Translations under genes and position numbers: made by a program | Shown here: piece by piece, positions 31,999 through 46,321 of the stretch | Numbering within the stretch: position 1 is the stretch's first letter | How the letters are laid out: each line of letters opens with the position of its first letter | From: a virus | Virus record (IMG/VR): IMGVR_UViG_3300047319_000185 | Span: 32,001-96,000 of that record | Length of the DNA stretch: 64,000 bases | Direction: 5' to 3' (one strand) | Notes under the pieces: generated by a model | Databases searched by the model: none | Told to the model about the DNA's origin: nothing | What the model saw: the letters and a program-made list of their open reading frames with translations, nothing else

Positions 31999-32434
31999 GG
32001 ATAAAACTCAAATCTGGTGGGGAGTAGGTGTCCGGTTTAAGTACTTTACCTATTTCATTGTAATGCACAGTTCCGTCAGACCATACCTTGCCCATGTTTG
32101 ACTTATGCACTTCTTCAAATACCTCTTGTAGTGGAATACCAAGTTCCTCAGCAGTTCCATAGACTACATACAGTAGATCAGCAAGTTCCTTAGCCAGGTG
32201 CTCTTTACTATCTGAGAGTGTCTTGTCAAATGCTGGAGCCATATCCCAGTACAGCTTACGAAGCAGATACTTACTGTAAATCTCTAGAGCCTCTATGGTC
32301 TCCTTGTATTCTTCGCGAATTAGCTTCACACGCTTCTCACCTAAGGAAACAGAAAAAGATCGGTCTCGTCTAGCCTCTCCGTCCTTGTCGAACTTGTCGT
32401 GGAACTCCTTCAGAGACTTCATAGGGTTATACAT
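31982..32434 (-). CDS. MazG-like nucleotide pyrophosphohydrolase (PRA-PH/dUTPase-type)
   Basis: LIREE..E, KELADLLYV.YG, VH.SNM.K, GKVLKP. Confidence 0.9.
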   Translation of the reverse strand: MYNPMKSLKEFHDKFDKDGEARRDRSFSVSLGEKRVKLIREEYKETIEALEIYSKYLLRKLYWDMAPAFDKTLSDSKEHLAKELADLLYVVYGTAEELGIPLQEVFEEVHKSNMGKVWSDGTVHYNEIGKVLKPDTYSPPDLSFIHEHRV

Positions 32435-35577: not shown

Positions 35578-35606
35578 GCCGAAGCTAAACAGAGCATTTA
35601 GTGGAG

Positions 35607-35690
35607 TGGATGCCGAGGGACTTGAACCCCCAGAGTCCGAAGACGATCGGGTTACAGCCGATGGCGCTGCCAATTACGCTTTAGACATCC
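35607..35690 (-). tRNA. tRNA-Tyr(GTA)
   Basis: Cloverleaf; loop CTGTAAC; long variable arm. Confidence 0.9.
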
Positions 35691-35794
35691 ATTGGTACCC
35701 GAGCCAGTCCCTGTCCTTCCTCATTATATAGAGGCGACTAGGGCATCGAATACATTCTCTACGAGGTGGATTTTTATTTACGTAGGACCTTTTG

Positions 35795-35868
35795 TCCAGC
35801 CGACGGGATTCGAACCCGCGTCACTCGGGTCACAGCCAAGTATGATAACCAACTACACTACGGCGGGG
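35795..35868 (-). tRNA. tRNA-His(GTG)
   Basis: CTTGG-CTGTGAC-CCGAG; T arm GGTTCGAATCC. Confidence 0.85.
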
Positions 35869-35881
35869 ATTATTTACAACG

Positions 35882-35953
35882 TACGAGTACCAAGAGTTGA
35901 ACTTGGGACTAGATTTTATCAGAATCTCGTGATAACCGTTTCACCACACTCGC
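35882..35953 (-). tRNA. tRNA-Ile(GAT)
   Basis: AGATT-CTGATAA-AATCT. Confidence 0.88.
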
Positions 35954-35954
35954 A

Positions 35955-36263
35955 TTATTCAAGACCAGATATGATTTCCTTTATGAATGCCTTAGGCTTA
36001 GCACCTACGACATACTTAATGATACTGCCCTTGTGGAACAAAAGCATAGTGGGTATAGATGAGATATCGTATCTCTTTGTCAGTTCTGGATTCTCATCCG
36101 CATTGACCTTTACTACATCTAGCCAGTCGTTCTCTTCTGCTATTGATTCTAGCACAGGAGCCATCATCTTGCAAGGGTTGCACCAGGTGGCCCAGAACTC
36201 TACAAAAACTGGCTTCTCAGATTCAAGTACCTCTGAGAATGTATCAGTAGTAATATCTCTCAC
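35955..36263 (-). CDS. trxA: Thioredoxin
   Basis: EFWATWCNPCK, IPT, VGA.PK. Confidence 0.93.
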   Translation of the reverse strand: MRDITTDTFSEVLESEKPVFVEFWATWCNPCKMMAPVLESIAEENDWLDVVKVNADENPELTKRYDISSIPTMLLFHKGSIIKYVVGAKPKAFIKEIISGLE

Positions 36264-36287
36264 TATTCCCTCTTTCTTTTATTCACG

Positions 36288-36362
36288 TATCCCAGGCAGG
36301 GCTCGAACCTGCATATCTCCTGTATATAAGACAGGGGCCGTCACCAATTTGGCTACTGGGAC
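36288..36362 (-). tRNA. tRNA-Ile(TAT)
   Basis: CCTGT-CTTATAT-ACAGG; canonical D and T arms. Confidence 0.88.
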
Positions 36363-36452
36363 ATTACATGCATTTAGTTGGCAGCCATTTCCCACTACAG
36401 GCGGTACTGTGTTGCTATCCCTTAGCCAACGGGGTTATGCATGAACCATACG

Positions 36453-36535
36453 TGGAAGATAAAGGAATCGAACCCTCAGGCTTTCACACCTGGCACGGTT
36501 TTCAAGGCCGTTTCGCACCCTGTGCGCTATCTTCC
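36453..36535 (-). tRNA. tRNA-Ser(TGA)
   Basis: Loop CTTGAAA; long variable arm; compact D arm. Confidence 0.82.
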
Positions 36536-36547
36536 GTTATTGGATAG

Positions 36548-36644
36548 CTGATAAAACACTAGGGGAATCGAACCCCAGACTCTATCCGTAGTCCCCAGGA
36601 CAACATTCCTGGCGCTGGTGCCTCCAGCTTTAGCTTAATATCAG
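36548..36644 (-). ncRNA. Non-canonical tRNA-like RNA (no 7-nt anticodon loop, extended acceptor stem)
   Basis: Four hairpins ending in GGGG-TTCGATT-CCCC, closed by CTGATA/TATCAG. Confidence 0.6.
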
Positions 36645-36647
36645 GAG

Positions 36648-36734
36648 CGGAAGATAGGAGATTCGAACTCCTGAGGGGATGGATACCCTGCTGCCTTTCC
36701 AAGACAGTGCACTAGACCGCTATGCGAATCTTCC
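36648..36734 (-). tRNA. tRNA-Ser(GGA)
   Basis: CTGTC-TTGGAAA-GGCAG; long variable arm. Confidence 0.9.
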
Positions 36735-36737
36735 AAG

Positions 36738-36817
36738 CGGAAGGCAGAGTACTCGAAACTCCAGCCGTTAAACTGAACGGATTAGCAATCCGTCTGCCCA
36801 CCTCGGGCTTACCTTCC
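36738..36817 (-). tRNA. tRNA-Ser(GCT)
   Basis: ACGGA-TTGCTAA-TCCGT; compact D arm. Confidence 0.82.
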
Positions 36818-36821
36818 AGAG

Positions 36822-36896
36822 AGCGTATAGGGAGAGTCGAACTCCTAAGTAGCAGTTTTGCAGACTGCCCCCGCGCCCTGCGAGTTAACTCTACGC
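36822..36896 (-). tRNA. tRNA-Cys(GCA), atypical (possible 8/4 fold)
   Basis: GCAGT-CTGCAAA-ACTGC; U73. Confidence 0.8.
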
Positions 36897-36899
36897 GCA

Positions 36900-37073
36900 T
36901 TAATCAATAATCACAACTTCACTGTAGCTAAGACGATATGTCTTAATCTTATCCCCATCCATCTTGGCAGTACACCAAGTTGACTCACTTCGGATAATTC
37001 TGCCTTCTTTACCGAATGCGTTACTACGAGGGTTCGTAACCTTGATCCTAGTACCTTCTTTGTTCTTACCCAC
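36900..37073 (-). CDS. 57-aa KOW/SH3-like miniprotein
   Basis: Below ORF-track cutoff. GGAGG RBS + GTG; MGKNKEGTRIKVTNPRSNAFGKEGRII...SYSEVVIID. Confidence 0.65.
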   Translation of the reverse strand: MGKNKEGTRIKVTNPRSNAFGKEGRIIRSESTWCTAKMDGDKIKTYRLSYSEVVIID

Positions 37074-37088
37074 AGTTTGCCTCCGTGT

Positions 37089-37232
37089 TTAAAGAAACTC
37101 TACTTCGGACTTCTTGTAGTAAAGCGTATCCTTGCCTATCTTAACAAGAACTTGGTCATCCAGCAAATGGACAACTACGCCTCTCTTGCCCGCATTCTTA
37201 CCCACAAGAATAAGGACATGTCTGTCAGCCAC
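37089..37232 (-). CDS. 47-aa KOW-motif miniprotein
   Basis: AAGGAG RBS + GTG; MADRHVLILVGKNAGKRGVVV...YKKSEVEFL. Confidence 0.7.
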   Translation of the reverse strand: MADRHVLILVGKNAGKRGVVVHLLDDQVLVKIGKDTLYYKKSEVEFL

Positions 37233-37254
37233 TATATTTCTCCTTGTTTGAAAG

Positions 37255-37333
37255 TGGAGATAGGGGGAGTCGAACCCCCGCTCCTAGCTATTCCGCGTGC
37301 GGTTTCAAAGCTAGTCGAATCCAGATAATCCCC
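37255..37333 (-). ncRNA. Minimal tmRNA: tRNA-like domain only, no mRNA-like domain
   Basis: GGGGATTATCTGGATTCGAC-TAGCT...AGCTAG-GAGC-GGGGGTTCGACTCCCCC-TATCTCCA; G3.U70, A73, no D stem. Confidence 0.8.
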
Positions 37334-37414
37334 ATAAATGCACAGGCACCAAGCCTCTGTGCTCCCAGGTCCACGAATAACATAACCATCTCCTAAGAGA
37401 CCCTGGCCCTTACG

Positions 37415-37485
37415 TACCCAATGACGGAGCTGCCCCGCCTACTGCTCTTTGTAAGAGAGCTATGATCCTGTTTCACCAATCGGGC
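37415..37485 (-). tRNA. tRNA-Val(TAC), atypical T loop
   Basis: GCTCT-CTTACAA-AGAGC; T loop GGCAGCT. Confidence 0.78.
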
Positions 37486-37518
37486 AAACACCCTTTCGGG
37501 CGATATTACTACTATATC

Positions 37519-37725
37519 TTAAAACAACTTAGTTGGAGTAAACATATCAGCAGGAAGAGTTTCAGACTTCACATGGTTTCCTGCCCAGGTAATATCTACT
37601 ACTAGGTTACCATGGTCGTCTATATACTCGTCACTATTTGCATGAGCCTTACTATTACGTGGACCCCACAGAGAATCTCCTGCTTGAATCTCGTTGCGTT
37701 TCTTTCCGAACAAGAATCCCATCAT
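37519..37725 (-). CDS. Hypothetical protein
   Basis: GGAGG RBS. Confidence 0.55.
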   Translation of the reverse strand: MMGFLFGKKRNEIQAGDSLWGPRNSKAHANSDEYIDDHGNLVVDITWAGNHVKSETLPADMFTPTKLF

Positions 37726-37740
37726 TGCCTCCTTTTGGCG

Positions 37741-37813
37741 TGCGCCTGGAGGGACTCGAACCCCCAACCTAACGGGTAGAAACCGTTTGCTCTATCCTTT
37801 GAGCTACAGGCGC
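37741..37813 (-). tRNA. tRNA-Arg(TCT)
   Basis: AACGG-TTTCTAC-CCGTT; canonical. Confidence 0.93.
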
Positions 37814-37836
37814 AGTGCCCTTTCGGGCGGTACTAC

Positions 37837-38307
37837 CTAATCCCACCAACCGTACCAAACATACTTGGAGTCAGTGTAGATGTCAATCTCATCCCAGTCC
37901 AAATCGCTGATCAGAGCTGTGTGAAGCTGTTGCTTAACCTTACCGCGAACTGCACTGTTGGTCAAGCGCTTGTAACTCTTGTGACTGTTCCAGTTTTCTG
38001 GGTAGTACTGAAGGTATGTGTAGCAGTTCTTGTCAGCAAGCTTACCCTCATTAGTATCCGGGCGAGGATAACGAAGACGCCAACTGGAAGGAGTTGTTTC
38101 AGGTACTTCAAGAGTACACTCTACAGTCTCACTCCAACGACGGTACAAGGGTCTGATACGGGTAGTTCCCTTAGCCCAGTAGGGTTCGTACTCCTCTTCC
38201 CCGATCTGTTCCTTGAGAACTACGTTGTGGTTGTGTGTGACCCTTACAGGCCCTCTGGGATCATTGTTCTGAACCCATGTAGGACGAGTATTATAAGTGC
38301 GAGACAT
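37837..38307 (-). CDS. Hypothetical basic protein
   Basis: GGAGG RBS. Confidence 0.6.
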   Translation of the reverse strand: MSRTYNTRPTWVQNNDPRGPVRVTHNHNVVLKEQIGEEEYEPYWAKGTTRIRPLYRRWSETVECTLEVPETTPSSWRLRYPRPDTNEGKLADKNCYTYLQYYPENWNSHKSYKRLTNSAVRGKVKQQLHTALISDLDWDEIDIYTDSKYVWYGWWD

Positions 38308-38415
38308 ACCAACCTCCGATAGTGCTAGAAGTTAAGCCAGTATATCGTTACTGACGGAACGTCGATGTCCACCATTTTGTGGGGAGAAATAGTCATCGAA
38401 TTTATGCAACTCCCG

Positions 38416-38487
38416 TACGGCTAGAGGGATTCGAACCCCCGACAACGGCTTCGTAGGCCGGTATGTTATCCTCTACACCATAGCCGT
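38416..38487 (-). tRNA. tRNA-Arg(ACG)
   Basis: Loop CTACGAA; canonical. Confidence 0.9.
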
Positions 38488-38898
38488 AGGACCAGTCCAC
38501 CAGCCAAACTGCTCAAAGGTTTTTATCCTATGGCATTTTACGCACAGTACCTGGCATTTATCTATCTCAGCTTGAACAACCGTAATCTTAGAGGTGTGTT
38601 TAGCTGCATCACTAATGTTAAACAATTTGGTAGAAGGATCAAGATGATCAAACTCTAGCACACGTGGGTCAATTTCTCCACATTGTACACAAGGATTATT
38701 AAGTAGGTATCTCCAGATGTATTCTCGCATGATCTGTAGATATTTTAGATCATTCTTCCTAGCCTTGTCAATGTAGTATTGCTTATTAGACGTATAGTGC
38801 TCCCTGTTGTATTGATTGTGGCAGGGCTTACACATTGAACTTCTAGAAGCAAACTCACTTAAGGACTTTTCTATGTTGCACTTTCTGCATGTCTTCAT
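38473..38898 (-). CDS. HNH endonuclease
   Basis: CxxC...LEFDH...C.VLC..CH..KT; overlaps tRNA-Arg 5' end. Confidence 0.88.
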   Translation of the reverse strand: MKTCRKCNIEKSLSEFASRSSMCKPCHNQYNREHYTSNKQYYIDKARKNDLKYLQIMREYIWRYLLNNPCVQCGEIDPRVLEFDHLDPSTKLFNISDAAKHTSKITVVQAEIDKCQVLCVKCHRIKTFEQFGWWTGPTAMV

Positions 38899-38925
38899 GC
38901 TATTAATCATAGCATAGGTTCGTAG

Positions 38926-39438
38926 CTACTTCTTCAATCCTAGCAGATACTTTCTCAACTTACCAGGTGTAACCAGGTATGGTTCCCTGTCTGTCAAAGT
39001 ATAACCCACTTCATCATAGTCCTCAGAAACTAGCTGAGAACAGATAAGGTGCTTTGAATCAAGGACTCTCTTGGTAACTCCTGGAGCCTTGATGTGAAAA
39101 CGATACATCGAAATCGCCAGGTAGTCAAGGAAGCTGTACTTTACTCCTACTTGCCCGACTGCTCTGTTAACTATAGTAGTACGCTGGTCATCTGTCAACT
39201 GAACCAGACCTGTTGACCAGAGGATACTGCGTCCATCATACTCACTCAGTTGGGATATACAAGCCCCACCAGGTTCAGCCTCTACGATCTGACCGTTACC
39301 GATATAGATAAAGGCATGTTCATAGTTGGAGAACCCATCTCCATTCAACCACTGTCCGAAGCGTATTAACGCTCCTACACCACCAGCAATGGATACAAGT
39401 CCGAAGTCTCCTGGTAACGGAGTTACACTATCAATCAT
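38926..39438 (-). CDS. Permuted papain-like NlpC/P60 protein (YiiX/YaeF family)
   Basis: PGD...H.FIY.G.G..VEA...G..Y...ICSQLV...VTP. Confidence 0.85.
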   Translation of the reverse strand: MIDSVTPLPGDFGLVSIAGGVGALIRFGQWLNGDGFSNYEHAFIYIGNGQIVEAEPGGACISQLSEYDGRSILWSTGLVQLTDDQRTTIVNRAVGQVGVKYSFLDYLAISMYRFHIKAPGVTKRVLDSKHLICSQLVSEDYDEVGYTLTDREPYLVTPGKLRKYLLGLKK

Positions 39439-39588
39439 CACACTTCTCCACATGAACTCTCAAAGCCACATTAGCATCATGCTCAGTGGGAAATGGACCT
39501 TCTACATGCTTACGTTTGTCACTACACTGATGGGAGTATGCCCAACCTCTATTAGCCTTATATACCATTTTATTCTCCTTATTATACG

Positions 39589-39660
39589 TACCCCCCGTGG
39601 GAATCGAACCCACTACTCGACGTTTAAAAGACGCCTTGTCAACCGGAGACACTGAGGGGC
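39589..39660 (-). tRNA. tRNA-Lys(TTT)
   Basis: GGCGT-CTTTTAA-ACGTC. Confidence 0.83.
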
Positions 39661-39687
39661 ATAAGGCCATTTCTGGCCCGTTTTACT

Positions 39688-39984
39688 TTAATCAATCTGC
39701 CAGCTAGTCTGACAGTCAGCGCAAGTACCATAATGGCCTCTAGCGCCACGAGAGACCGGTAGAATAGTTCCAAGACCACCAATAATCTTGCCTGTGAAAA
39801 GATTGGTGTTATGGTCTCCACGTCTATCTCTTGGACAGTCAACAAGTTCCCCTGTTGACCCACCAGGAGAATTCCTGGTAAGATTACGCTTTTCCTGACC
39901 ATTCTTCTTGTAGTAACGCGCAGCATGGTCATTAACATCAAACGGCTTACGAGGTTCTGGCTCTTTCTTACCAAACAAACTCAC
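39688..39984 (-). CDS. Zn-ribbon-like protein
   Basis: CP....DHNT.LFTG...SRG..G.Y.TC.DC..W. Confidence 0.6.
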   Translation of the reverse strand: MSLFGKKEPEPRKPFDVNDHAARYYKKNGQEKRNLTRNSPGGSTGELVDCPRDRRGDHNTNLFTGKIIGGLGTILPVSRGARGHYGTCADCQTSWQID

Positions 39985-40250
39985 GATGCAGGATTTCCCT
40001 TCTTATCAGTAAGCTGCCATGCACAGCCGCAGTCGTTACAGGTCATATACGTACCCTTGTCTCCACGAGATGTACAGAGAAGTGGGTATACCTTTGTTCC
40101 ATCAGACTGCTGCTTATAACCACAAGTTATCATACCTGTGAAGAGATGGGTATTATGGTCTCGTTTGCCACTAGGACAAGGAGGACTGGAATTGAATACC
40201 GATCCACCCTTATATACAAACGCCTTAATGGTATCACCTAGAAAACTGAT
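39981..40250 (-). CDS. Paralog of 39688-39984 starting at an ATC codon
   Basis: GGAGG-CAAACT-ATC; same CP..DHNT.LFTG..SRG..TC.DC..WQ motif; GTGA coupling. Confidence 0.6.
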   Translation of the reverse strand: MSFLGDTIKAFVYKGGSVFNSSPPCPSGKRDHNTHLFTGMITCGYKQQSDGTKVYPLLCTSRGDKGTYMTCNDCGCAWQLTDKKGNPAS

Positions 40251-40279
40251 AGTTTGCCTCCTATAGTTTTTATATAACG

Positions 40280-40352
40280 AGCCTTATCAGGGAGTCGAAC
40301 CCTGTCTCTCTCCGTACCAAGGAGAAGTGCTAACCATAGTCACTAATAAGGC
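40280..40352 (-). tRNA. tRNA-Thr(GGT)
   Basis: TCTCC-TTGGTAC-GGAGA. Confidence 0.9.
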
Positions 40353-40463
40353 ATAACAGATTGAGTCTCTAGAGTTCCGTTTAACGGTGCCCTCTCTCTG
40401 CTTTCTTGTATGAAATCCAGCCCTGTGCTCCGGACGCTCTTTGCCCTTCATTCATACAATACG

Positions 40464-40534
40464 TACTCCGCCAGGGACTCGAACCCTGATCCCCAGATTA
40501 AGAGTCTGGTGCATCACCTTAATGCTTGCAGAGC
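40464..40534 (-). tRNA. tRNA-Lys(CTT)
   Basis: CCAGA-CTCTTAA-TCTGG. Confidence 0.9.
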
Positions 40535-40660
40535 ATGTGAGTAGTTCTCGTAACACTACACCGTAGACGTTTACTGAAGCCGATATCTATGGTTCATGTT
40601 AATTATTGGACTCAAAGTCTTCAGTTACCGGAAATCCGTGACTCCTACTCAAAGCCATTG

Positions 40661-40732
40661 TGGAGCTACGGGGATTCGAACCCCGAATTCCTGCTTGCAA
40701 AACAGGCGTGTTGCCACTAACACTATAGCCCC
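40661..40732 (-). tRNA. tRNA-Ala(TGC)
   Basis: Loop TTTGCAA; G3.U70. Confidence 0.92.
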
Positions 40733-40901
40733 AATGTGCCGTAAGGAGACCCCACTATCTCTGCGTGAGGTCACCAGGATGAGCCTTAGCCGAGAGATAT
40801 TACGCATATCTCATCCCAGTAGGTTCCCTTACTTGCGCGCCTTACCCTTAGCGTTTGCGCTTCCCTGATGTAGTCTAGCTTAGCAGATCAGGCTCTAAGA
40901 G

Positions 40902-41303
40902 TCAATCTCGCCAGACCCAGCCAGATCGGTGTACTTCAGCATCACGTTCATGCTTCTCGATCTCATCTGCTGGAATTACCAGAATGTCATCCTGTAGCAG
41001 ATACTGCTCCAACGTAGTATACGTATAGGTATAGCTTCCGAATATGCGTGCAGATTCGATATACTCGTTACCTTCATAGCCGCACCCACGCTCATAAGCA
41101 GTAGCTTCTCTCAAGGAGTCGCTTTGAGTAATGGAATAGTCTTCACCACAGCAAGAACACGTTACGTTATTCGGGTCATGGCCAAAACGGCTGTAGAAGA
41201 CAGAGGTAGCTTGATTCTCTGGAGCCTCAATGTAGATGTACTGATATGGAGACTCCTTGGTTCCACCACCAGAATGCATATCCATAAACTGTGTCCACAC
41301 CAT
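40902..41303 (-). CDS. Hypothetical phage protein
   Basis: GGAGG RBS; FMDMHSGG...CSCCG. Confidence 0.65.
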   Translation of the reverse strand: MVWTQFMDMHSGGGTKESPYQYIYIEAPENQATSVFYSRFGHDPNNVTCSCCGEDYSITQSDSLREATAYERGCGYEGNEYIESARIFGSYTYTYTTLEQYLLQDDILVIPADEIEKHERDAEVHRSGWVWRD

Positions 41304-41382
41304 ATTGCCTCCTATATCGTGGTACGTCATTAGGTAAAAATAAACTCCACCAGTATTTCTACGGTGGAGAGGATTAAGTTAA

Positions 41383-41491
41383 TGATAGATCGTAGCATAC
41401 CGGACTCGAACCGGTGCGACGGACCAGTAACGATCCGTACTCTACCTCTGAGTTAATACTACGAGACTGAATTGACTGTCTCGACCTATCA
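41383..41491 (-). ncRNA. tRNA-like RNA with canonical D/T arms, abnormal anticodon arm and extra 5' hairpin/outer stem
   Basis: TGATAGGTCG/CGATCTATCA outer stem; ACTC-AGAGGTA-GAGT; ACCGG-TTCGAGT-CCGGT. Confidence 0.7.
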
Positions 41492-41493
41492 AG

Positions 41494-41569
41494 CTCTCAC
41501 GACTGGAATCGAACCAGTAGGGGGACGGTTTAACAGACCGTTGCAACTGCCAATAGCTGCCCCGTGAGA
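41494..41569 (-). tRNA. tRNA-Asn(GTT)
   Basis: ACGGT-CTGTTAA-ACCGT. Confidence 0.85.
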
Positions 41570-41646
41570 ATAAACCCTAACCACAAGGGGAAGGGTGTGT
41601 TATCAGCTCAACAAGAGTATCAGGTACCTCTTCTCTCGTCAAGCAG

Positions 41647-41714
41647 CAGGGTATGTAGGGATTGAACCTACCAAGAAAGCTTTTGGAGAGCGATCTCCTC
41701 CCAGAGGATACCCT
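41647..41714 (-). tRNA. tRNA-Trp(CCA), minimal D arm
   Basis: AGGGTAT/ATACCCT acceptor, loop CTCCAAA, G73. Confidence 0.72.
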
Positions 41715-41761
41715 ATCGCGGTTCCGTTGTGTAATCGGACAACGGTTTCCTAAAACCTGCG

Positions 41762-41845
41762 TAGCCCTTATCGGATTCGAACCGATACGTCACAAGGACA
41801 CTGGTTCCTAAGACCAGCGCGTCTGCCAGATTCCGCCAAAAGGCC
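41762..41845 (-). tRNA. tRNA-Leu(TAG)
   Basis: CTGGT-CTTAGGA-ACCAG; long variable arm. Confidence 0.92.
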
Positions 41846-41850
41846 ATACG

Positions 41851-42276
41851 TTAGCTTATTAAGTTATGGACATAATGAGAAGCTTCATAGTCTGAAGCAG
41901 AGGCATTATGTATTCCGCCATGTCCTCTATGATGCTTACTGCACAAGAACATGAAGTTCTCGTCAGATTCTACCCAAGCCCCGATTTCATCAGGATTTGA
42001 GATACCGGGAAAGTCTCTTTCAAGGTAGGTTAAGTCTACACCCTGCTGCATACTGAATTCAACATGTGCGTGGTGAAGTTCTAGTCCTCCGACACATTCT
42101 GCTGTATCCCCGCCACGTCTCAGCGCGAAATCACAAACTGCTGTGTCTACATGAGTCTTGCGGTAATGGTTAAAATCCTTGTAATGCGGATCATCTGTAC
42201 GAGCTGGGTGAGCAGGAAACGCTACAGTGTAGTGCTTAGTCTCTGCTTGACTGTGTGCGTTTACTATCTTACCCAT
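41851..42276 (-). CDS. His-rich HNH-like protein
   Basis: LELHH...N...LC..HH....GIH. Confidence 0.55.
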   Translation of the reverse strand: MGKIVNAHSQAETKHYTVAFPAHPARTDDPHYKDFNHYRKTHVDTAVCDFALRRGGDTAECVGGLELHHAHVEFSMQQGVDLTYLERDFPGISNPDEIGAWVESDENFMFLCSKHHRGHGGIHNASASDYEASHYVHNLIS

Positions 42277-42296
42277 GTTGCTCCTTGTATGTCAAG

Positions 42297-42369
42297 TAGT
42301 CCTTGTCGGATTCGAACCGACACTGCGCAGGACTTAAATCTGCTGCCTCTACCATTGGGCTAAAGGACC
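42297..42369 (-). tRNA. tRNA-Leu(TAA), bldA-equivalent, short variable arm
   Basis: GCAGA-TTTAAGT-CCTGC; canonical D/T arms; A73. Confidence 0.87.
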
Positions 42370-42467
42370 ATTCGCACAATCCATCTTTTCAGGGTTCAGG
42401 CTTTGTGCTGTGCTAAGTCGGGCTGCCCCTCCATTGCCCTGACTGTGGCTTGCGTTACTTAGCAGTG

Positions 42468-42540
42468 TACTCCAGGTCGGATTCGAACCGACAACTCTTC
42501 GTTTTTGAGACGAAGTCCTCTACCATTGGGATACTGGAGC
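42468..42540 (-). tRNA. tRNA-Leu(CAA), short variable arm
   Basis: TTCGT-CTCAAAA-ACGAA. Confidence 0.88.
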
Positions 42541-42730
42541 ATAAGTGACGATTCCGGATTAGCATCCGGGAGCCACTACACAGGTCTTTAGCTTTTAGTC
42601 GGTTCAATGCTGTACAAGTAGTGTACCCCGGAAGTACCTTTGTTGTAAAGCTGTCCGTGCCAGGAGTTACTGTGCAGAACCTAAAGATGGGTTTGGTAAC
42701 TTATTAGTCCCATCCAACCCATCTAGTTGC

Positions 42731-42820
42731 TTACTTTTGCTCAGTTGCCTTGTACAACTTTACTAAAGCTGTTACAAATAACACAACTGCTGTCGCCTGG
42801 TTAAGCTGCTTTGTGGTCAT
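42731..42820 (-). CDS. 29-aa single-TM peptide
   Basis: GAAAGGAG RBS, 8-nt spacer; MTTKQLNQATAVVLFVTALVKLYKATEQK. Confidence 0.55.
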   Translation of the reverse strand: MTTKQLNQATAVVLFVTALVKLYKATEQK

Positions 42821-42841
42821 GAAGCATACTCCTTTCGTTAT

Positions 42842-43372
42842 CTAGTAGGATATACCTGCTGCGTAACGAAGTCTACGAGCATGTCTTCCTTTCCCTTTGT
42901 TCTTACTTTTGTAAGTATCTAGTTGACTGTCACAGTTAGGACAGACAAGACGAAGATTGCTCCGCCAATTATTTTCTGAATTACCGTCAATATGGTCTAA
43001 CACGAAGACTATAGGAAGTTCATTCCACATAGTTCCATTTAAGCAGATACAGCATTTACTATGCTGCTCAGCAAGGATATATAGACGTATTGGATCATTC
43101 TGACTAGTACCTGGAGCTACTGAACCCTCTGCCAACCACTGATCTAACCTAGTTTTAACTCTATGCGCATTTGCACAGCTAGTAGAGCAATATTTTACTT
43201 GGATGTCATTTAACTCTTTAGTACAGTAAAAACAGCTATCGTAACGAATTTTAGTACCTAAAATCTGATTTCTTCTCACGCCTTGATTATTAACTGTTGC
43301 TGCACAAGAACGTGAACAAAATTTAGGATTTTTAGTTTGGTTTAAACATGATGGATTCTTACAAGTATTCAT
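42842..43372 (-). CDS. HNH endonuclease
   Basis: FCSRSC and YCSTSC repeats; LDHIDGN..NN...NLRLVCPNC. Confidence 0.92.
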   Translation of the reverse strand: MNTCKNPSCLNQTKNPKFCSRSCAATVNNQGVRRNQILGTKIRYDSCFYCTKELNDIQVKYCSTSCANAHRVKTRLDQWLAEGSVAPGTSQNDPIRLYILAEQHSKCCICLNGTMWNELPIVFVLDHIDGNSENNWRSNLRLVCPNCDSQLDTYKSKNKGKGRHARRLRYAAGISY

Positions 43373-43400
43373 AGTGTAAGCATACCATATTCGAACCTAG

Positions 43401-43474
43401 AGCCGGTAGGGGGAATCGAACCCAACCTAAATCCGCTTTACAAGAGCGGTGCATCGCCATTATGCTTTACCGGC
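43401..43474 (-). tRNA. tRNA-Thr(TGT)
   Basis: CCGCT-CTTGTAA-AGCGG. Confidence 0.87.
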
Positions 43475-43481
43475 AAGTGCT

Positions 43482-43511
43482 ACTATATCAGGTTAGTAGC
43501 CAACCTGTCAA
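43482..43511 (-). promoter_or_regulatory. Internal tRNA-cluster promoter
   Basis: TTGACA-N18-TATAGT just upstream of tRNA-Thr. Confidence 0.8.
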
Positions 43512-43546
43512 ACAACAGCGGAAGGAGGAACACTGTTGTCTAACTA

Positions 43547-43834
43547 TTAGGAAGTTCCGGAAGCCGTAACAACCCAGTCTGTGATTGCATTAAGAGTAAA
43601 GTCAATAGGCTTTGCAAAAGCGTTTCCGCTTAGGTACACAGTCCAAAGACCATCTGTTCCACCAGCGCCAGGAGCTACAGGAGCCTGAACAACAGATGTA
43701 ACTGTTGGATAGCCAAGACCAGTAGCTGGAACAGGCTGCACGTAGCAGTGACCGTCAGCAGCAGCTACGAAAGCAACAGCGGTTCCGACAGTCAGAGCAT
43801 TTACTCTAGTTGGTGCGTTATAAGTGATTGCCAT
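43547..43834 (-). CDS. Small Ala/Thr/Val-rich virion-like protein
   Basis: GAAAGG RBS; composition like 26-27 kb genes. Confidence 0.55.
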   Translation of the reverse strand: MAITYNAPTRVNALTVGTAVAFVAAADGHCYVQPVPATGLGYPTVTSVVQAPVAPGAGGTDGLWTVYLSGNAFAKPIDFTLNAITDWVVTASGTS

Positions 43835-43916
43835 TTTTGAGCCTTTCATGAAAGAACTATATTTAGTTCGCTATAGCCCTATTATCGTATCATGAAAGGT
43901 CATTTAATTCTTAACG

Positions 43917-43988
43917 TACCCCCGGAGGGAATTGAACCCTCTCTTCAGGCTTGAAAGGCCAGTGTACTAACCAATATACTACGGGGAC
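43917..43988 (-). tRNA. tRNA-Glu(TTC)
   Basis: Loop CTTTCAA. Confidence 0.88.
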
Positions 43989-44225
43989 AAAAACCCTACC
44001 AGTCCCGGAGAACGGTAGGGAACAATCTCGGCAAGGGAACAGTAGTGCCTGCTTCGAATCAGGGACTGTTGGTGCCTTGCTGAGTATAAATAGTCCTTAG
44101 GGTTACCCATCCCTTAACTACACTGAATGGTTGATCACAGGCAGCTTATCTCATTTCAGCTAGCGAGACCGGATGTGGCTTCAGCTCATCCCGCAATCTC
44201 TTGAGACCTGTGAGGGTAACAAACG

Positions 44226-44299
44226 TACTCCGTACGGGGCTCGAACCCGTAATCTCTTCCTTGAGAGGGAAGTGACTTAACCACTTTGTCCAACGGAGC
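44226..44299 (-). tRNA. tRNA-Glu(CTC)
   Basis: CTTCC-CTCTCAA-GGAAG. Confidence 0.92.
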
Positions 44300-44302
44300 A
44301 TA

Positions 44303-44455
44303 TTACTTATTTCTTAGACTGTCTACTACTTTGCGCTGATCCCTGATCTTTGTGGTCAAGGCCTGTCGTTGTGCACTCTGCTTCACAGTACGCAATTCTT
44401 GCATCATCTCATGAAGTTTGTCAAGTGCGTCCTTGTATTCCTGACTGAAGCCCAT
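44303..44455 (-). CDS. 50-aa helical miniprotein
   Basis: GAGGAG RBS; MGFSQEYKDALDKL... Confidence 0.5.
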   Translation of the reverse strand: MGFSQEYKDALDKLHEMMQELRTVKQSAQRQALTTKIRDQRKVVDSLRNK

Positions 44456-44616
44456 ATTACTTGTGTCTCCTCAGAAGTTCAGTATTGATCTGATCGATTT
44501 CTCGTTCAATGAACTTCTTACGTTGTTTTGACAGTCCACCCTGCTTGATGATGTCCTGTCTTAGTTTTAGATAGCCTTTTAACTGTTCACTTGTTTTAGA
44601 CTCTAAGTGTTCCATG

Positions 44617-44688
44617 CGCCCACGACGGTATTCGAAACCGCCCTTGCAGCTTGACAGGCTACCGTGCTAACCACTACACTACGCGAGC
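44617..44688 (-). tRNA. tRNA-Asp(GTC)
   Basis: GTAGC-CTGTCAA-GCTGC. Confidence 0.88.
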
Positions 44689-44713
44689 AAAGTTGCTTTC
44701 GCAACCGATTAAG

Positions 44714-45022
44714 TTATTCTGGCCAGCTAATATTGGGATACTGCTCAACTGCTGTGCCATCTCGTACTATTACCCTTGACATGTCTGGAGATTCTTCTCC
44801 ATGTCTCAGGACTATCAAGAAGTTGTTAGGATAAGCATATGCTAACTGCTGTAGGTCTGTCAACCAGTCATACCACTTAGCACAGTCATATCCGCTTACT
44901 TGGCCCTCATAATCTTCCCAACCAGGAGATCCCCAGCCATACTGCTTATCAGCGTTGTTGAGAACATCCTTGATATCAGGAATATCTGTATCTACTACTT
45001 CGAAAGTAGAGTAATAACCCAT
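44714..45022 (-). CDS. Hypothetical acidic phage protein
   Basis: GGAGG RBS; MGYY...KWY...GEE..D. Confidence 0.65.
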   Translation of the reverse strand: MGYYSTFEVVDTDIPDIKDVLNNADKQYGWGSPGWEDYEGQVSGYDCAKWYDWLTDLQQLAYAYPNNFLIVLRHGEESPDMSRVIVRDGTAVEQYPNISWPE

Positions 45023-45046
45023 AGTTGCCTCCATAGATTGTAAAAG

Positions 45047-45117
45047 CTCCCCCACCAGGGCTCGAACCTAGACTCCGAGAGCCAAAGGCTCGTGTGCTGC
45101 CATTACACTAAAGGGGA
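45047..45117 (-). tRNA. tRNA-Gln(TTG)
   Basis: Loop CTTTGGC; U1-A72, G73. Confidence 0.87.
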
Positions 45118-45121
45118 AAAG

Positions 45122-45192
45122 CTCTCCAACCTGGATTCGAACCAAGTCCAGCGAATTCAGAGTCCGCGATGCTGCCGTTACACCATTGGAGA
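45122..45192 (-). tRNA. tRNA-Gln(CTG)
   Basis: GCGGA-CTCTGAA-TTCGC. Confidence 0.9.
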
Positions 45193-45267
45193 ATAAGAGG
45201 GTCGCGTATTGGGACAATTCAAACCCAAGAACCAATACCACCTACTCTAGGCGGGAAACCCAGCAAG

Positions 45268-45340
45268 TACCGTATAGGAGACTCGAACTCCTTCGTTCAC
45301 TTTGGAAGAGTGACATGCTGCCATTGAACATCAATACGGC
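45268..45340 (-). tRNA. tRNA-Gly(TCC)
   Basis: TCACT-CTTCCAA-AGTGA. Confidence 0.9.
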
Positions 45341-45353
45341 ATTATTTAATTGT

Positions 45354-45430
45354 TGGTGGCGGAGCTTCGGAATCGCACCGAATTAACCCAGCTTATGAGA
45401 CTGGTCGAGATAACTAACCTCCCGCCCGCA
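45354..45430 (-). tRNA. tRNA-Met(CAT), initiator-like and atypical; encoded CCA
   Basis: Loop CTCATAA; 1:72 mismatch; T loop TGCGATT. Confidence 0.75.
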
Positions 45431-45431
45431 G

Positions 45432-45502
45432 TAGCTGATGACAGAATTGAACTGTCGTTGACGGCTTATGAAACCGTTGTTCTGCCATTGAACTAATCAG
45501 CC
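45432..45502 (-). tRNA. tRNA-Met(CAT)
   Basis: ACGGT-TTCATAA-GCCGT. Confidence 0.88.
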
Positions 45503-45650
45503 ATCGGCTTATTCAGCCATAAAACTTATACTGAGGAGCCGAACTGCGCTACCTCAATCTTCTTACCATCAATAAGCTTCTCTACCTTAGCAGAGGCCTT
45601 AACGGTATTCAAAGGCTTACGCATATCGTCTCCTTCTAGTTGTTGTAAAG

Positions 45651-45723
45651 TGTCCCCGACCGGGTTCGAACCGATGACCTGCGCAGCTTCAATGCGCCGC
45701 TCTACCAACTGAGCTACAGGGAC
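45651..45723 (-). tRNA. tRNA-Phe(GAA)
   Basis: GCGCA-TTGAAGC-TGCGC. Confidence 0.92.
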
Positions 45724-45789
45724 AAACGAGTTACTTACTTGTATTTAGCATCGTATCTATTATGTGATTTGGTGATGTCTATACGTTGA

Positions 45790-46125
45790 TCATAACTCTA
45801 GTTTGCGTATGTGCGTTCGTGTCGCATGACAGTTTGCACATACAAGATCACATTTAGCAACTTCTTCAAGAAGCGCCTTGATAGTACTTATCTTACCTGT
45901 TTCGGACACATTGACAAGTTTAATCTCGTCAGGTCGGTGATCGAACTGCATTACCCAATAAGGATATGCTACAGAGCAATCTAAACAGGGTTGCATATCC
46001 TTTAGCTCAAGAGTGATTCTGCGCATCTCAAGCTTTAAAGCTCTAGACCTTGCATAATACTTCTCTTTGTTAGCTTGGTAATGCTTCTTAGTGTACTCGC
46101 GTTGTTTTTCTTTAGAAAGTGTCAT
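45790..46125 (-). CDS. HNH endonuclease
   Basis: PC.DC...MQFDH...KCDLVCANCH..RT. Confidence 0.88.
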   Translation of the reverse strand: MTLSKEKQREYTKKHYQANKEKYYARSRALKLEMRRITLELKDMQPCLDCSVAYPYWVMQFDHRPDEIKLVNVSETGKISTIKALLEEVAKCDLVCANCHATRTHIRKLEL

Positions 46126-46163
46126 ACTTCATTGTATCAAATCTTTGTTAGAGATTTGAACCG

Positions 46164-46237
46164 TCTAGATGGCAGGATTTGAACCTGCGACCGCCCGAAT
46201 CCAAGTCGGGTACGCTACCAAACTGCGCTACATCTAG
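46164..46237 (-). tRNA. tRNA-Pro(TGG), A37 variant
   Basis: CCCGA-CTTGGAT-TCGGG. Confidence 0.9.
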
Positions 46238-46249
46238 ATTAATACTACG

Positions 46250-46321
46250 TCGGGCACCCGAGAATCGAACTCGGTTTATCCTGTTCCCAAAACAGGCGGA
46301 TTACCATCTTCCTCGTGCCCG
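46250..46321 (-). tRNA. tRNA-Pro(TGG)
   Basis: CCTGT-TTTGGGA-ACAGG. Confidence 0.88.

Follow-up and report, generated by a model that had tools for sequence, protein, structure and literature searches.

The stretch of DNA analysed here (the window; 64,000 nucleotides, positions 32,001 to 96,000 of IMG/VR virus record IMGVR_UViG_3300047319_000185) carries a tRNA array of 30 genes, called by ARAGORN between 35.6 and 46.3 kb. Within this array, on the minus strand at 41383-41491, lies the element that is the subject of this report. The element follows a tRNA-Asn(GUU) gene, the 5' strand of its outer stem starting 2 nt past the ARAGORN end of that tRNA, and a terminator-like hairpin 13 nt past its own end closes the transcription unit. 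An earlier note, made from the sequence without database searches, had described it as a tRNA mimic with an intact elbow, a sealed acceptor end and no canonical anticodon loop, and the sequences quoted there are those of the minus strand of this interval. The genome of the source virus is 112.6 kb long and 100% complete by CheckV. Its terminase shares 79% identity with the terminases of Streptomyces phage BRock (Borockvirus) and relatives, and on sequence similarity the virus is a Borockvirus-like phage of the soil Streptomyces type. The tRNA arrays of this group are syntenic over 11 relatives in IMG/VR.

Fold of the element and its homologues

ARAGORN reports 41390-41463 (minus strand) as 'tRNA-???' with an anticodon of 2 nt. 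The Rfam tRNA model RF00005 gives the element 45.3 bits (gathering score 29), and, tRNA aside, no Rfam family matches it at E<=10 over 41300-41600. The minimum-free-energy fold of the 109 nt (-39.7 kcal/mol, z = -3.5, with none of 200 shuffled sequences as stable) consists of a 9-bp end-to-end helix, a 5-bp hairpin, a 7-bp acceptor stem, a D arm, an anticodon hairpin and a T arm (Table 1). The acceptor stem, the D arm, the T arm and the elbow-forming residues are canonical. The 5' hairpin directly abuts G1 of the acceptor stem, and because the three-way junction has no unpaired base in this fold, positions -1 and 73-81 are all paired. The 3' strand of the outer stem begins at the discriminator position, with G73 and A74 both paired. 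The predicted structure thus shows the acceptor terminus buried in a fully paired three-way junction, formed with the 5' hairpin and the end helix of 9-10 bp.

Most of the structural description in the earlier note agrees with this fold, including the intact D and T arms, the GAGAC...GTCTC hairpin, the acceptor stem continuing into an outer stem, and an anticodon arm of 7 bp with the 6-nt loop GTTACT, although under the standard reading of a 5-bp stem that loop becomes 8 nt (CGUUACUG). The outer stem of 10 bp described there is better given as 9 bp plus one alternative pair, as the tenth pair (G41482-C41392) competes with G1-C72 and with the first pair of the 5' hairpin.

Homologues were sought in IMG/VR and in JGI metagenome contigs with exact words and patterns, and a covariance model of the element (R1) was run over 12 related phage genomes, four named phages that are Borockvirus-like, 15 other contigs and 80 Ro60/Rsr loci of bacteria. 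Two further copies were found, one in a related phage of 111.7 kb (G004) and one on a soil metagenome contig of 10.8 kb (L204). Over its search set R1 found no copy beyond these two and that of the window, its other matches (<=46 bits) being ordinary tRNAs. The exact 16-mer from the anticodon arm gave 15 matches in IMG/VR, all of them chance ones in coding DNA, and the 15-mer GTAGTATTAACTCAG gave more than 116, of which, among the matches listed, only that in G004 was real. A gapped pattern of the D and T arms returned G004 and one ordinary tRNA-Ile from IMG/VR; the same approach in metagenome contigs gave one new homologue, L204. The element was also present, unchanged, in DNA contigs from four rhizosphere runs, which adds no variation.

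Minimum-free-energy folds of the G004 and L204 copies have the same architecture as that of the window copy. In the alignment of the three sequences, 36 pairs are standard throughout (108/108 cells) and six have changed on both sides; the outer stem, with its nine pairs, accounts for three of these, the anticodon stem for two and the T stem for one. When the partners were slid by 1-3 columns, pairing was 26-42%, and 2 of 500 column shuffles reached the observed values. The 5' hairpin of G004 has 6 bp and a GUAA tetraloop, and between the window and L204, too, the loop of this hairpin differs. The anticodon hairpin varies across the homologues, in contrast to an invariant elbow, acceptor stem, D arm and T arm. 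The loops at the anticodon position, each closed by a C-G pair, are GUUACU in the window, GUUACC in L204 and CGCA in G004, that is 6, 6 and 4 nt, or 8, 8 and 6 nt if a 5-bp stem is read (CGUUACCG being the 8-nt loop of L204), and never 7 nt.

The window and L204 copies of the element share 92.7% identity, compared with 62-66% for the flanking non-coding DNA and 74% for the next open reading frame (ORF), and all 8 differences within the element either lie in loops or preserve pairing. The homologues are not recent copies of one another, since their flanks are divergent. When leaders and trailers from this array were combined at random, about 2.6% of the combinations gave a 10-bp helix with G-U pairs permitted, so the window on its own gives only mild evidence. 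The 108 conserved pair cells, the excess of identity over the flanks and the structure-preserving nature of the differences together exclude the decay of a tRNA. Read from these alignments, the architecture is shown to have been maintained through compensatory substitutions in three phage lineages, and purifying selection on the element to be strong in two lineages without a Ro60/Rsr gene. The earlier note had named homologues in which a normal tRNA had decayed by point mutation, with an unconserved outer stem, as the finding that would overturn its reading; the outer-stem changes seen in the homologues are instead compensated.

With respect to decoding, the element resembles a canonical tRNA (RF00005) in its 7/4/5/5 cloverleaf with acceptor, D, anticodon and T arms, its T loop UUCGAGU, and its elbow and core residues U8, A14, G18G19, A21, G15-C48 and G53-C61. 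It differs in lacking a 7-nt loop with U33, a purine at 37 and an assignable anticodon (the loop has 8 or 6 nt, in G004 6 or 4, and ARAGORN assigns no amino acid), and in having its leader and trailer fully paired up to positions -1 and 73, so that no single-stranded N73 and (C)CA is accessible; all three copies have G73 and A74 in pairs. In place of the near-invariant C56, G004 has U56. Across 19 related arrays (window 35606-46321 and arrays L190-L208), about 430 of 437 tRNA genes encode N73-C74 without a full CCA, few encoding the full CCA, whereas the element has A74; the uniform partial 3' end of the array genes suggests a shared maturation route. When helices starting exactly at N73 were compared over the 437 tRNA calls, the two element copies that ARAGORN calls were the most Watson-Crick-rich. 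One longer helix, of 11 bp (7 Watson-Crick pairs), belongs to a tRNA-Gln and starts two bases further on.

Several origins were considered and rejected. An array tRNA as parent of the element was not supported, the best scores being 23 against a self-score of 73 (+1/-1 global alignment). The loop contains UAC and ARAGORN calls no tRNA-Val in the window, and a replacement for that tRNA was therefore considered, but L204 and G004 carry a normal tRNA-Val(UAC) as well as the element. More generally, the element is no stand-in for a missing tRNA, because L204 and G004 carry normal Val and Trp tRNAs (L204 also Cys). A mobile element with inverted repeats, of the kind of miniature inverted-repeat transposable elements, was rejected with all three copies at the same orthologous position, and a group I intron or a split tRNA found no support.

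Relation to Y RNAs and the Ro60 cassette

In 9 of the 11 relatives, and in phages BRock, GiJojo, pSt2308 and Alone3, a Ro60/Rsr gene (TROVE plus VWA, about 540 aa) lies between tRNA-Asn and tRNA-Ala. It is preceded by two to five tandem YrlA-like RNAs, which share the handle (C)GAUGCG(A/U)AG...UUACUUC. Cassettes of this kind were seen in L193 (5320-7455), L191, L195, L198-L202 and L205-L208 (BRock, GiJojo, pSt2308 and Alone3). All the YrlA-like RNAs of the Borockvirus-like phages fall short of the Rfam gathering score for YrlA, and the GenBank records annotate none of them as a Y RNA. In G004 the order is tRNA-Asn, the element, a YrlA-like RNA (Rfam YrlA 35 bits, E = 2e-5), more Y-like RNAs and Rsr. 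The element therein heads the cassette, with Rsr about 0.55 kb downstream on the same strand.

The first slot after tRNA-Asn is occupied in the other relatives by a Y-like RNA, by a plain hairpin, or by one of two further structures. In G009 (L200 8505-8568, minus strand) this is an end-paired stem of 60 nt containing GUCGAAAC, and in G011 (L202 7628-7735, plus strand) an end-paired RNA of 100 nt with three hairpins, one of them T-arm-like, and GUGCGAAAC. Both are possibly further small Y-like RNAs. Some deposited tRNA calls just upstream of Rsr coincide with Y-like RNAs, namely L206 3269-3343 (GiJojo 'tRNA-Arg(cct)'), which starts at the Y handle, L208 3301-3374 (Alone3 'tRNA-Ser(gct)', 74 nt) and L294 2248-2338 (Frankenweenie 'tRNA-Pro', 91 nt), which spans the Y handle and T arm. 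These are probably mis-called Y-like RNAs and not tRNAs.

Relatives of the phage Rsr are encoded in at least 562 actinobacterial genome stretches, mostly from Streptomyces and Kitasatospora, the best 80 listed being 51-55% identical; the result came from an alignment-based scan, a first single-protein scan having found nothing. In the four loci that were read among these 80 (L212-L291, at about 2000-2500 in each), one or two tRNA-mimic RNAs with the T arm before the D arm (GGUGCGAAGG...CUACUUC) lie directly upstream of Rsr. The Rfam YrlA threshold was reached in none of the 16 bacterial Rsr loci tested.

The element shares several properties with YrlA/YrlB RNAs (RF02553). Both are tRNA mimics with D and T arms, a closed acceptor end and a stem formed by the ends, and YrlA-like RNAs are found in phage tRNA arrays, in the same slot in 9 of 11 relatives and adjoining the element in G004. 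The element is nonetheless not a YrlA RNA. YrlA is circularly permuted (T arm, capped acceptor, D arm, terminal stem) and has its ends at the anticodon position; the element keeps the normal tRNA order of acceptor, D arm, anticodon hairpin and T arm, and its ends lie beyond the acceptor stem. That the arm order differs from YrlA had been recognised in the earlier note, which missed the resemblance to the published order of Yrn1 discussed below. The YrlA search that it proposed returned no match for the element, which gave no hit to RF02553 at E<=10 on 41300-41600 (gathering threshold 69 bits). The handle of the relatives' Y RNAs is lacking, GATGCGWAG having no match in the window, and an Rsr/TROVE gene within about 4 kb on the same strand accompanies the G004 copy only, the source phage having none there. 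The GGTCGA that had been likened to the Ro60-binding motif is present as GGUCGA at 41486-41481, its GGUC falling in the 5' strand of the outer stem. The YrlA motif GNCGAA(N)G near the 5' end (GNCGAAN0-1G) is nevertheless absent, the corresponding sequences being GUCGAGAC in the window, GUCGAGAU in G004 and AUCGAGAC in L204.

A closer architectural match is offered by Yrn1 of Deinococcus radiodurans, which has been modelled with the D before the T side, a 5-bp 'anticodon' stem, a 6-nt loop and an end-paired stem (Chen et al. 2014, RNA 20:1715, PMC4201824). The element has, by that paper's description, the same end-paired stem, D-side features before the T arm, and a stem-loop with a 6-nt loop at the position of the anticodon arm, and through G004 it is likewise found in a row of Y RNAs beside an Rsr gene. 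This match concerns architecture only and was drawn from the text of the paper, without sequence comparison. In contrast to the element, which is a complete cloverleaf, Yrn1 has no full D arm or variable region. Yrn1 also has a conserved Rsr-binding helix, whereas the element's candidate, GUCGAG or AUCGAG, straddles the three-way junction and has no bulge. Compared with the bulged, GGUCCGA-related Ro-binding helix, the element has GGUCGA in the window and an A in place of the first G in L204.

[quoted passage not shown] Like the element, it stacks its closed 7-bp acceptor stem on a T arm of canonical form, and its setting is likewise actinobacterial. It differs in that its closure is a small loop, while that of the element is a three-way junction with a hairpin of 5-6 bp and a helix of 9-10 bp, both selectively maintained. 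Taken together, these comparisons suggest that the element is a variant of the tRNA-mimicking kind of Y-like noncoding RNA that stands outside every named family, its likeness to Yrn1 being one of architecture only.

Transcription unit and neighbouring features

Table 1. Positions of the element, its predicted parts and neighbouring features in the window
Feature	Position	Strand	Basis or remark
Element	41383-41491	-	109 nt
Outer stem, 5' strand (UGAUAGGUC)	41483-41491	-	Fold; 9 pairs with 41383-41391
Extra 5' hairpin, GAGAC / 10-nt loop / GUCUC	41463-41482	-	Fold; stem kept in 3/3 homologues
tRNA-shaped body	41392-41462	-	ARAGORN tRNA-???, Rfam tRNA 45.3 bits, pair counts; U8 and A9 present
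Acceptor stem, 7 bp, U5-G68 wobble included	41456-41462 with 41392-41398	-	Fold
D arm, 4 bp, loop AGAGGUA	41439-41453	-	Fold
A26	41438	-	
'Anticodon' hairpin, 6-7 bp, loop GUUACU at 41426-41431	41420-41437	-	Fold
Variable region UCGC, 4 nt	41416-41419	-	
T arm, 5 bp, loop UUCGAGU	41399-41415	-	Fold
Outer stem, 3' strand (GAUCUAUCA)	41383-41391	-	Fold, pair counts
tRNA-Asn(GUU), 77-nt variant, directly upstream	41493-41569	-	ARAGORN
Terminator-like hairpin CUCCACC...GGUGGAG, then UUUAUUUUU	41336-41369	-	-13.8 kcal/mol, z = -3.8
Possible promoter of the Asn and element unit, TTGACG-17-TACTCT	41614-41642	-	Inference only
ORF of 142 aa (ORF142)	40902-41330	-	CSCCGEDY motif
Trp(CCA)-like sequence	41645-41716	-	Not called by ARAGORN or Rfam
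Weak match to tRNA-Sec model	36823-36896	-	26 bits
tRNA-like-domain-only 'mini-tmRNA', about 82 nt	37252-37333	-	Rfam tmRNA 55-65 bits

The tRNA-Asn and the element are probably co-transcribed. The candidate promoter upstream of both was not flagged by the consensus scan, and relatives carry TTGACA-17-TAGTAT at its position. The terminator was likewise unflagged, owing to its long loop. In the window and in L204 the order is tRNA-Asn, element, terminator-like hairpin with U run, and ORF142, with no Rsr cassette; L204 has a different hairpin and U run at the position of the terminator. In the relative G003 the tRNA-Asn is followed directly by the window's terminator with no element in between, which marks the element as a discrete, exchangeable module.

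The tRNA-Asn of the window is 98.7% identical in L204, and the Rfam tRNA model gave no report for it. It is a 77-nt variant with a D stem of 5 bp and a longer variable region, which L204 and G011 share; strain variants have a stretch of 68 nt in its place, and G004 has a canonical tRNA-Asn of 73 nt.

In both the window and L204, ORF142 takes the place of the Rsr cassette; over this ORF the two are 74% identical at the DNA level, with changes mainly at third positions. No family of Pfam, NCBIfam or PHROG covers it. None of the 11 relatives, G004 included, carries it, and it is therefore not a fixed partner of the element. Used as an anchor in the homologue search, it led to relatives in unrelated contexts without tRNAs. 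Neither RtcB nor a class-II CCA-adding enzyme was found in the genome of the source phage.

Other tRNA-like sequences of the array are deviant. The Trp(CCA)-like sequence retains its acceptor stem, T arm and CUCCAAA loop, with a disrupted D arm and a mismatched anticodon stem, and it provides an internal contrast to the structure-preserving element; strain variants from the rhizosphere runs have a different sequence of 74 nt at this position. At the site of the tRNA-Sec match the relatives have a tRNA-Cys(GCA) of 78 nt, and the window sequence is possibly a deviant Cys tRNA that ARAGORN misses. The mini-tmRNA is conserved and was also seen in L190, L199, L201 and L202; a Val(UAC) call, absent in the window, is present near it in all relatives.

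Possible roles of the element

We consider the chances about even that the element is the gene for a stable, non-decoding, tRNA-shaped noncoding RNA of about 109 nt that serves as a protein-binding mimic. On this model the element would be transcribed together with tRNA-Asn as far as the terminator, and the cut that matures the 3' end of the tRNA would release it and create its 5' end. It would then persist because both of its ends are paired. As made, the RNA could not be CCA-tailed, charged or delivered to the ribosome unless the seal were opened, and with charging and decoding closed to it, it would act by being bound. What it would present to a tRNA- or Y-RNA-binding protein, as adaptor or as competitor, is the elbow and a long coaxial helix of acceptor, T and outer stems.

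The single most likely partner, though we would sooner bet against it than for it, is an RNA-surveillance machinery of the Ro60/Rsr-PNPase type supplied by the Streptomyces host. It is favoured because the element stands in the Y-RNA row of G004, because its topology is that of Yrn1, and because a phage Ro60 and its Y-like RNAs bind host PNPase (PMC12135203). RNase P, RNase Z and an elbow-binding modification enzyme are alternative partners. Were Rsr the partner, the element would be a Y-RNA-like mimic in the orientation of Yrn1. About as doubtful is the proposal that the element founds a new architectural class, a non-permuted, end-sealed cloverleaf acting as a Y-RNA-like adaptor without a phage Ro60, which would either recruit host Rsr/PNPase or sequester an elbow-reading enzyme (RNase P, RNase Z) during Streptomyces infection.

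A number of observations weigh against these proposals. The complete genome of the source phage has no TROVE gene and no YrlA-like RNA, the best YrlA match (14 bits) lying elsewhere than the element. The L204 contig also has neither an Rsr gene nor a YrlA-like RNA, and two of the three carriers are therefore without Rsr. The model of the element found no match in the 80 Rsr loci of the Streptomyces group, four of which were also read, and only Y-like RNAs with T before D were seen by eye in the Rsr regions of phages Atuin, Rabbitrun, Frankenweenie and Quantum. All three copies have CGAG in place of CGAA at the candidate Ro60 motif, and L204, with AUCGAG, has lost the leading G. The R1 searches found the element absent from BRock, GiJojo, pSt2308, Alone3 and 10 of the 11 IMG/VR relatives, and it is therefore dispensable and rare. 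The covariation statistics, with just three distinct homologues, are thin, and no RNA run was among the public runs listed as containing the element sequence. In addition, RNase P opens the closed acceptor of M. smegmatis YrlA (PMC4201824), and 'sealed' need not mean never opened.

The two functions put forward in the earlier note have thus fared differently in their parts. For a non-chargeable elbow mimic, the conserved shape, the sealed acceptor and the lack of a usable anticodon loop all speak in favour, while the lack of conservation in the loop makes a decoy for anticodon nucleases unlikely. For a Y-like RNA, Rsr and YrlA-like RNAs do occupy the same slot in most relatives and the element comes first in the G004 cassette, although the Ro60/TROVE gene that was to be looked for is missing from the rest of the phage; Streptomyces genomes, as the likely hosts, commonly encode Rsr.

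Among other explanations, it is conceivable, if improbable, that the element has no function of its own and is a cis-acting processing or stability module of the tRNA-Asn unit, which directs cleavage by RNase Z or RNase E or blocks 3' exonucleases. Its close fit between the tRNA and the terminator (2 nt and 13 nt) is consistent with this, as is the fact that in every relative the CUU trailer of tRNA-Asn directly precedes an end-paired RNA or hairpin, be it a Y-like RNA, the 60-nt stem or a terminator. For such a purpose, however, a simple hairpin would suffice, and in G001 and G003, which have no element, tRNA-Asn is followed directly by a terminator. Nor would a cis-acting module have any need of an invariant acceptor stem, a complete elbow or the residues U8, A14, G18G19 and G53-C61, and the adjoining tRNA-Asn is not the same in all carriers, being the 77-nt variant in the window and the canonical 73-nt form in G004.

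We regard with equal reserve a decoy or competitive inhibitor, independent of Ro60, of a host defence system or toxin that is directed at tRNA and reads the elbow and acceptor helix, an explanation that partly overlaps with the protein-binding mimic. The invariance of the elbow, D arm, T arm and acceptor stem beside a variable anticodon hairpin speaks in its favour. The element is also maintained in phages without Rsr, and in being a cassette-like accessory gene restricted by lineage it resembles many counter-defence genes. Known anticodon nucleases, however, need a loop sequence, which is unconserved here, and toxins acting on the 3' CCA end would not see an end that is sealed. No defence of this elbow-reading kind was identified here, and no defence-related gene was found among the neighbours, ORF142 having no family and being absent from G004.

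Slightly less probable again is a precursor that is opened, in which RNase P cuts 5' of G1 in spite of the hairpin and the leader dissociates, after which trimming of the trailer and CCA addition would yield a free tRNA-like RNA of 72 nt. Such a product might be charged for unusual decoding (8-nt loop, quadruplet) or serve a non-ribosomal role. A 7-bp acceptor stem with a canonical T arm is the main determinant for RNase P, the processing and tailing of M. smegmatis YrlA (PMC4201824) offers a precedent, and the window and L204 both have 8-nt loops on a 5-bp stem. The G004 loop, on the other hand, has 6 nt, or 4 nt after an extra C-G pair, and no common decoding function is therefore possible; U33 and R37 are also absent. 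A stable hairpin takes up positions -1 to -5, 73-81 are paired as well, there is no C74, and if the outer stem and hairpin were simply thrown away, their compensatory upkeep would serve no purpose. The element (A3-U70, G73, short variable arm) fits no identity set of an aminoacyl-tRNA synthetase.

The idea of a decaying pseudo-tRNA whose flanks are complementary by chance, for which one could cite the other deviant tRNA-like genes of the phage, such as the Trp-like sequence, and the chance frequency of a 10-bp helix, is largely refuted by the complete retention of pairs with six double-sided changes, by the identity of the element relative to its flanks with every difference structure-preserving, and by a loop of other than 7 nt in all three lineages.

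To our knowledge, nearly all tRNA mimics of the Y-RNA type described from bacteria and phages have the permuted YrlA form, and every one of them accompanies Ro60. The element described here is rare, with three lineages known, and gene finders either label it 'tRNA-???' or miss it; several neighbouring Y-like RNAs in deposited phage genomes have been annotated as odd tRNAs. It is nevertheless selectively maintained in the natural tRNA order with a sealed acceptor, and it survives in phages that have lost the Ro60 cassette, which indicates that tRNA-shaped RNAs are used more broadly than as partners of Ro60. The element thus provides a small, well-defined RNA with which to ask which proteins read the tRNA elbow during infection.

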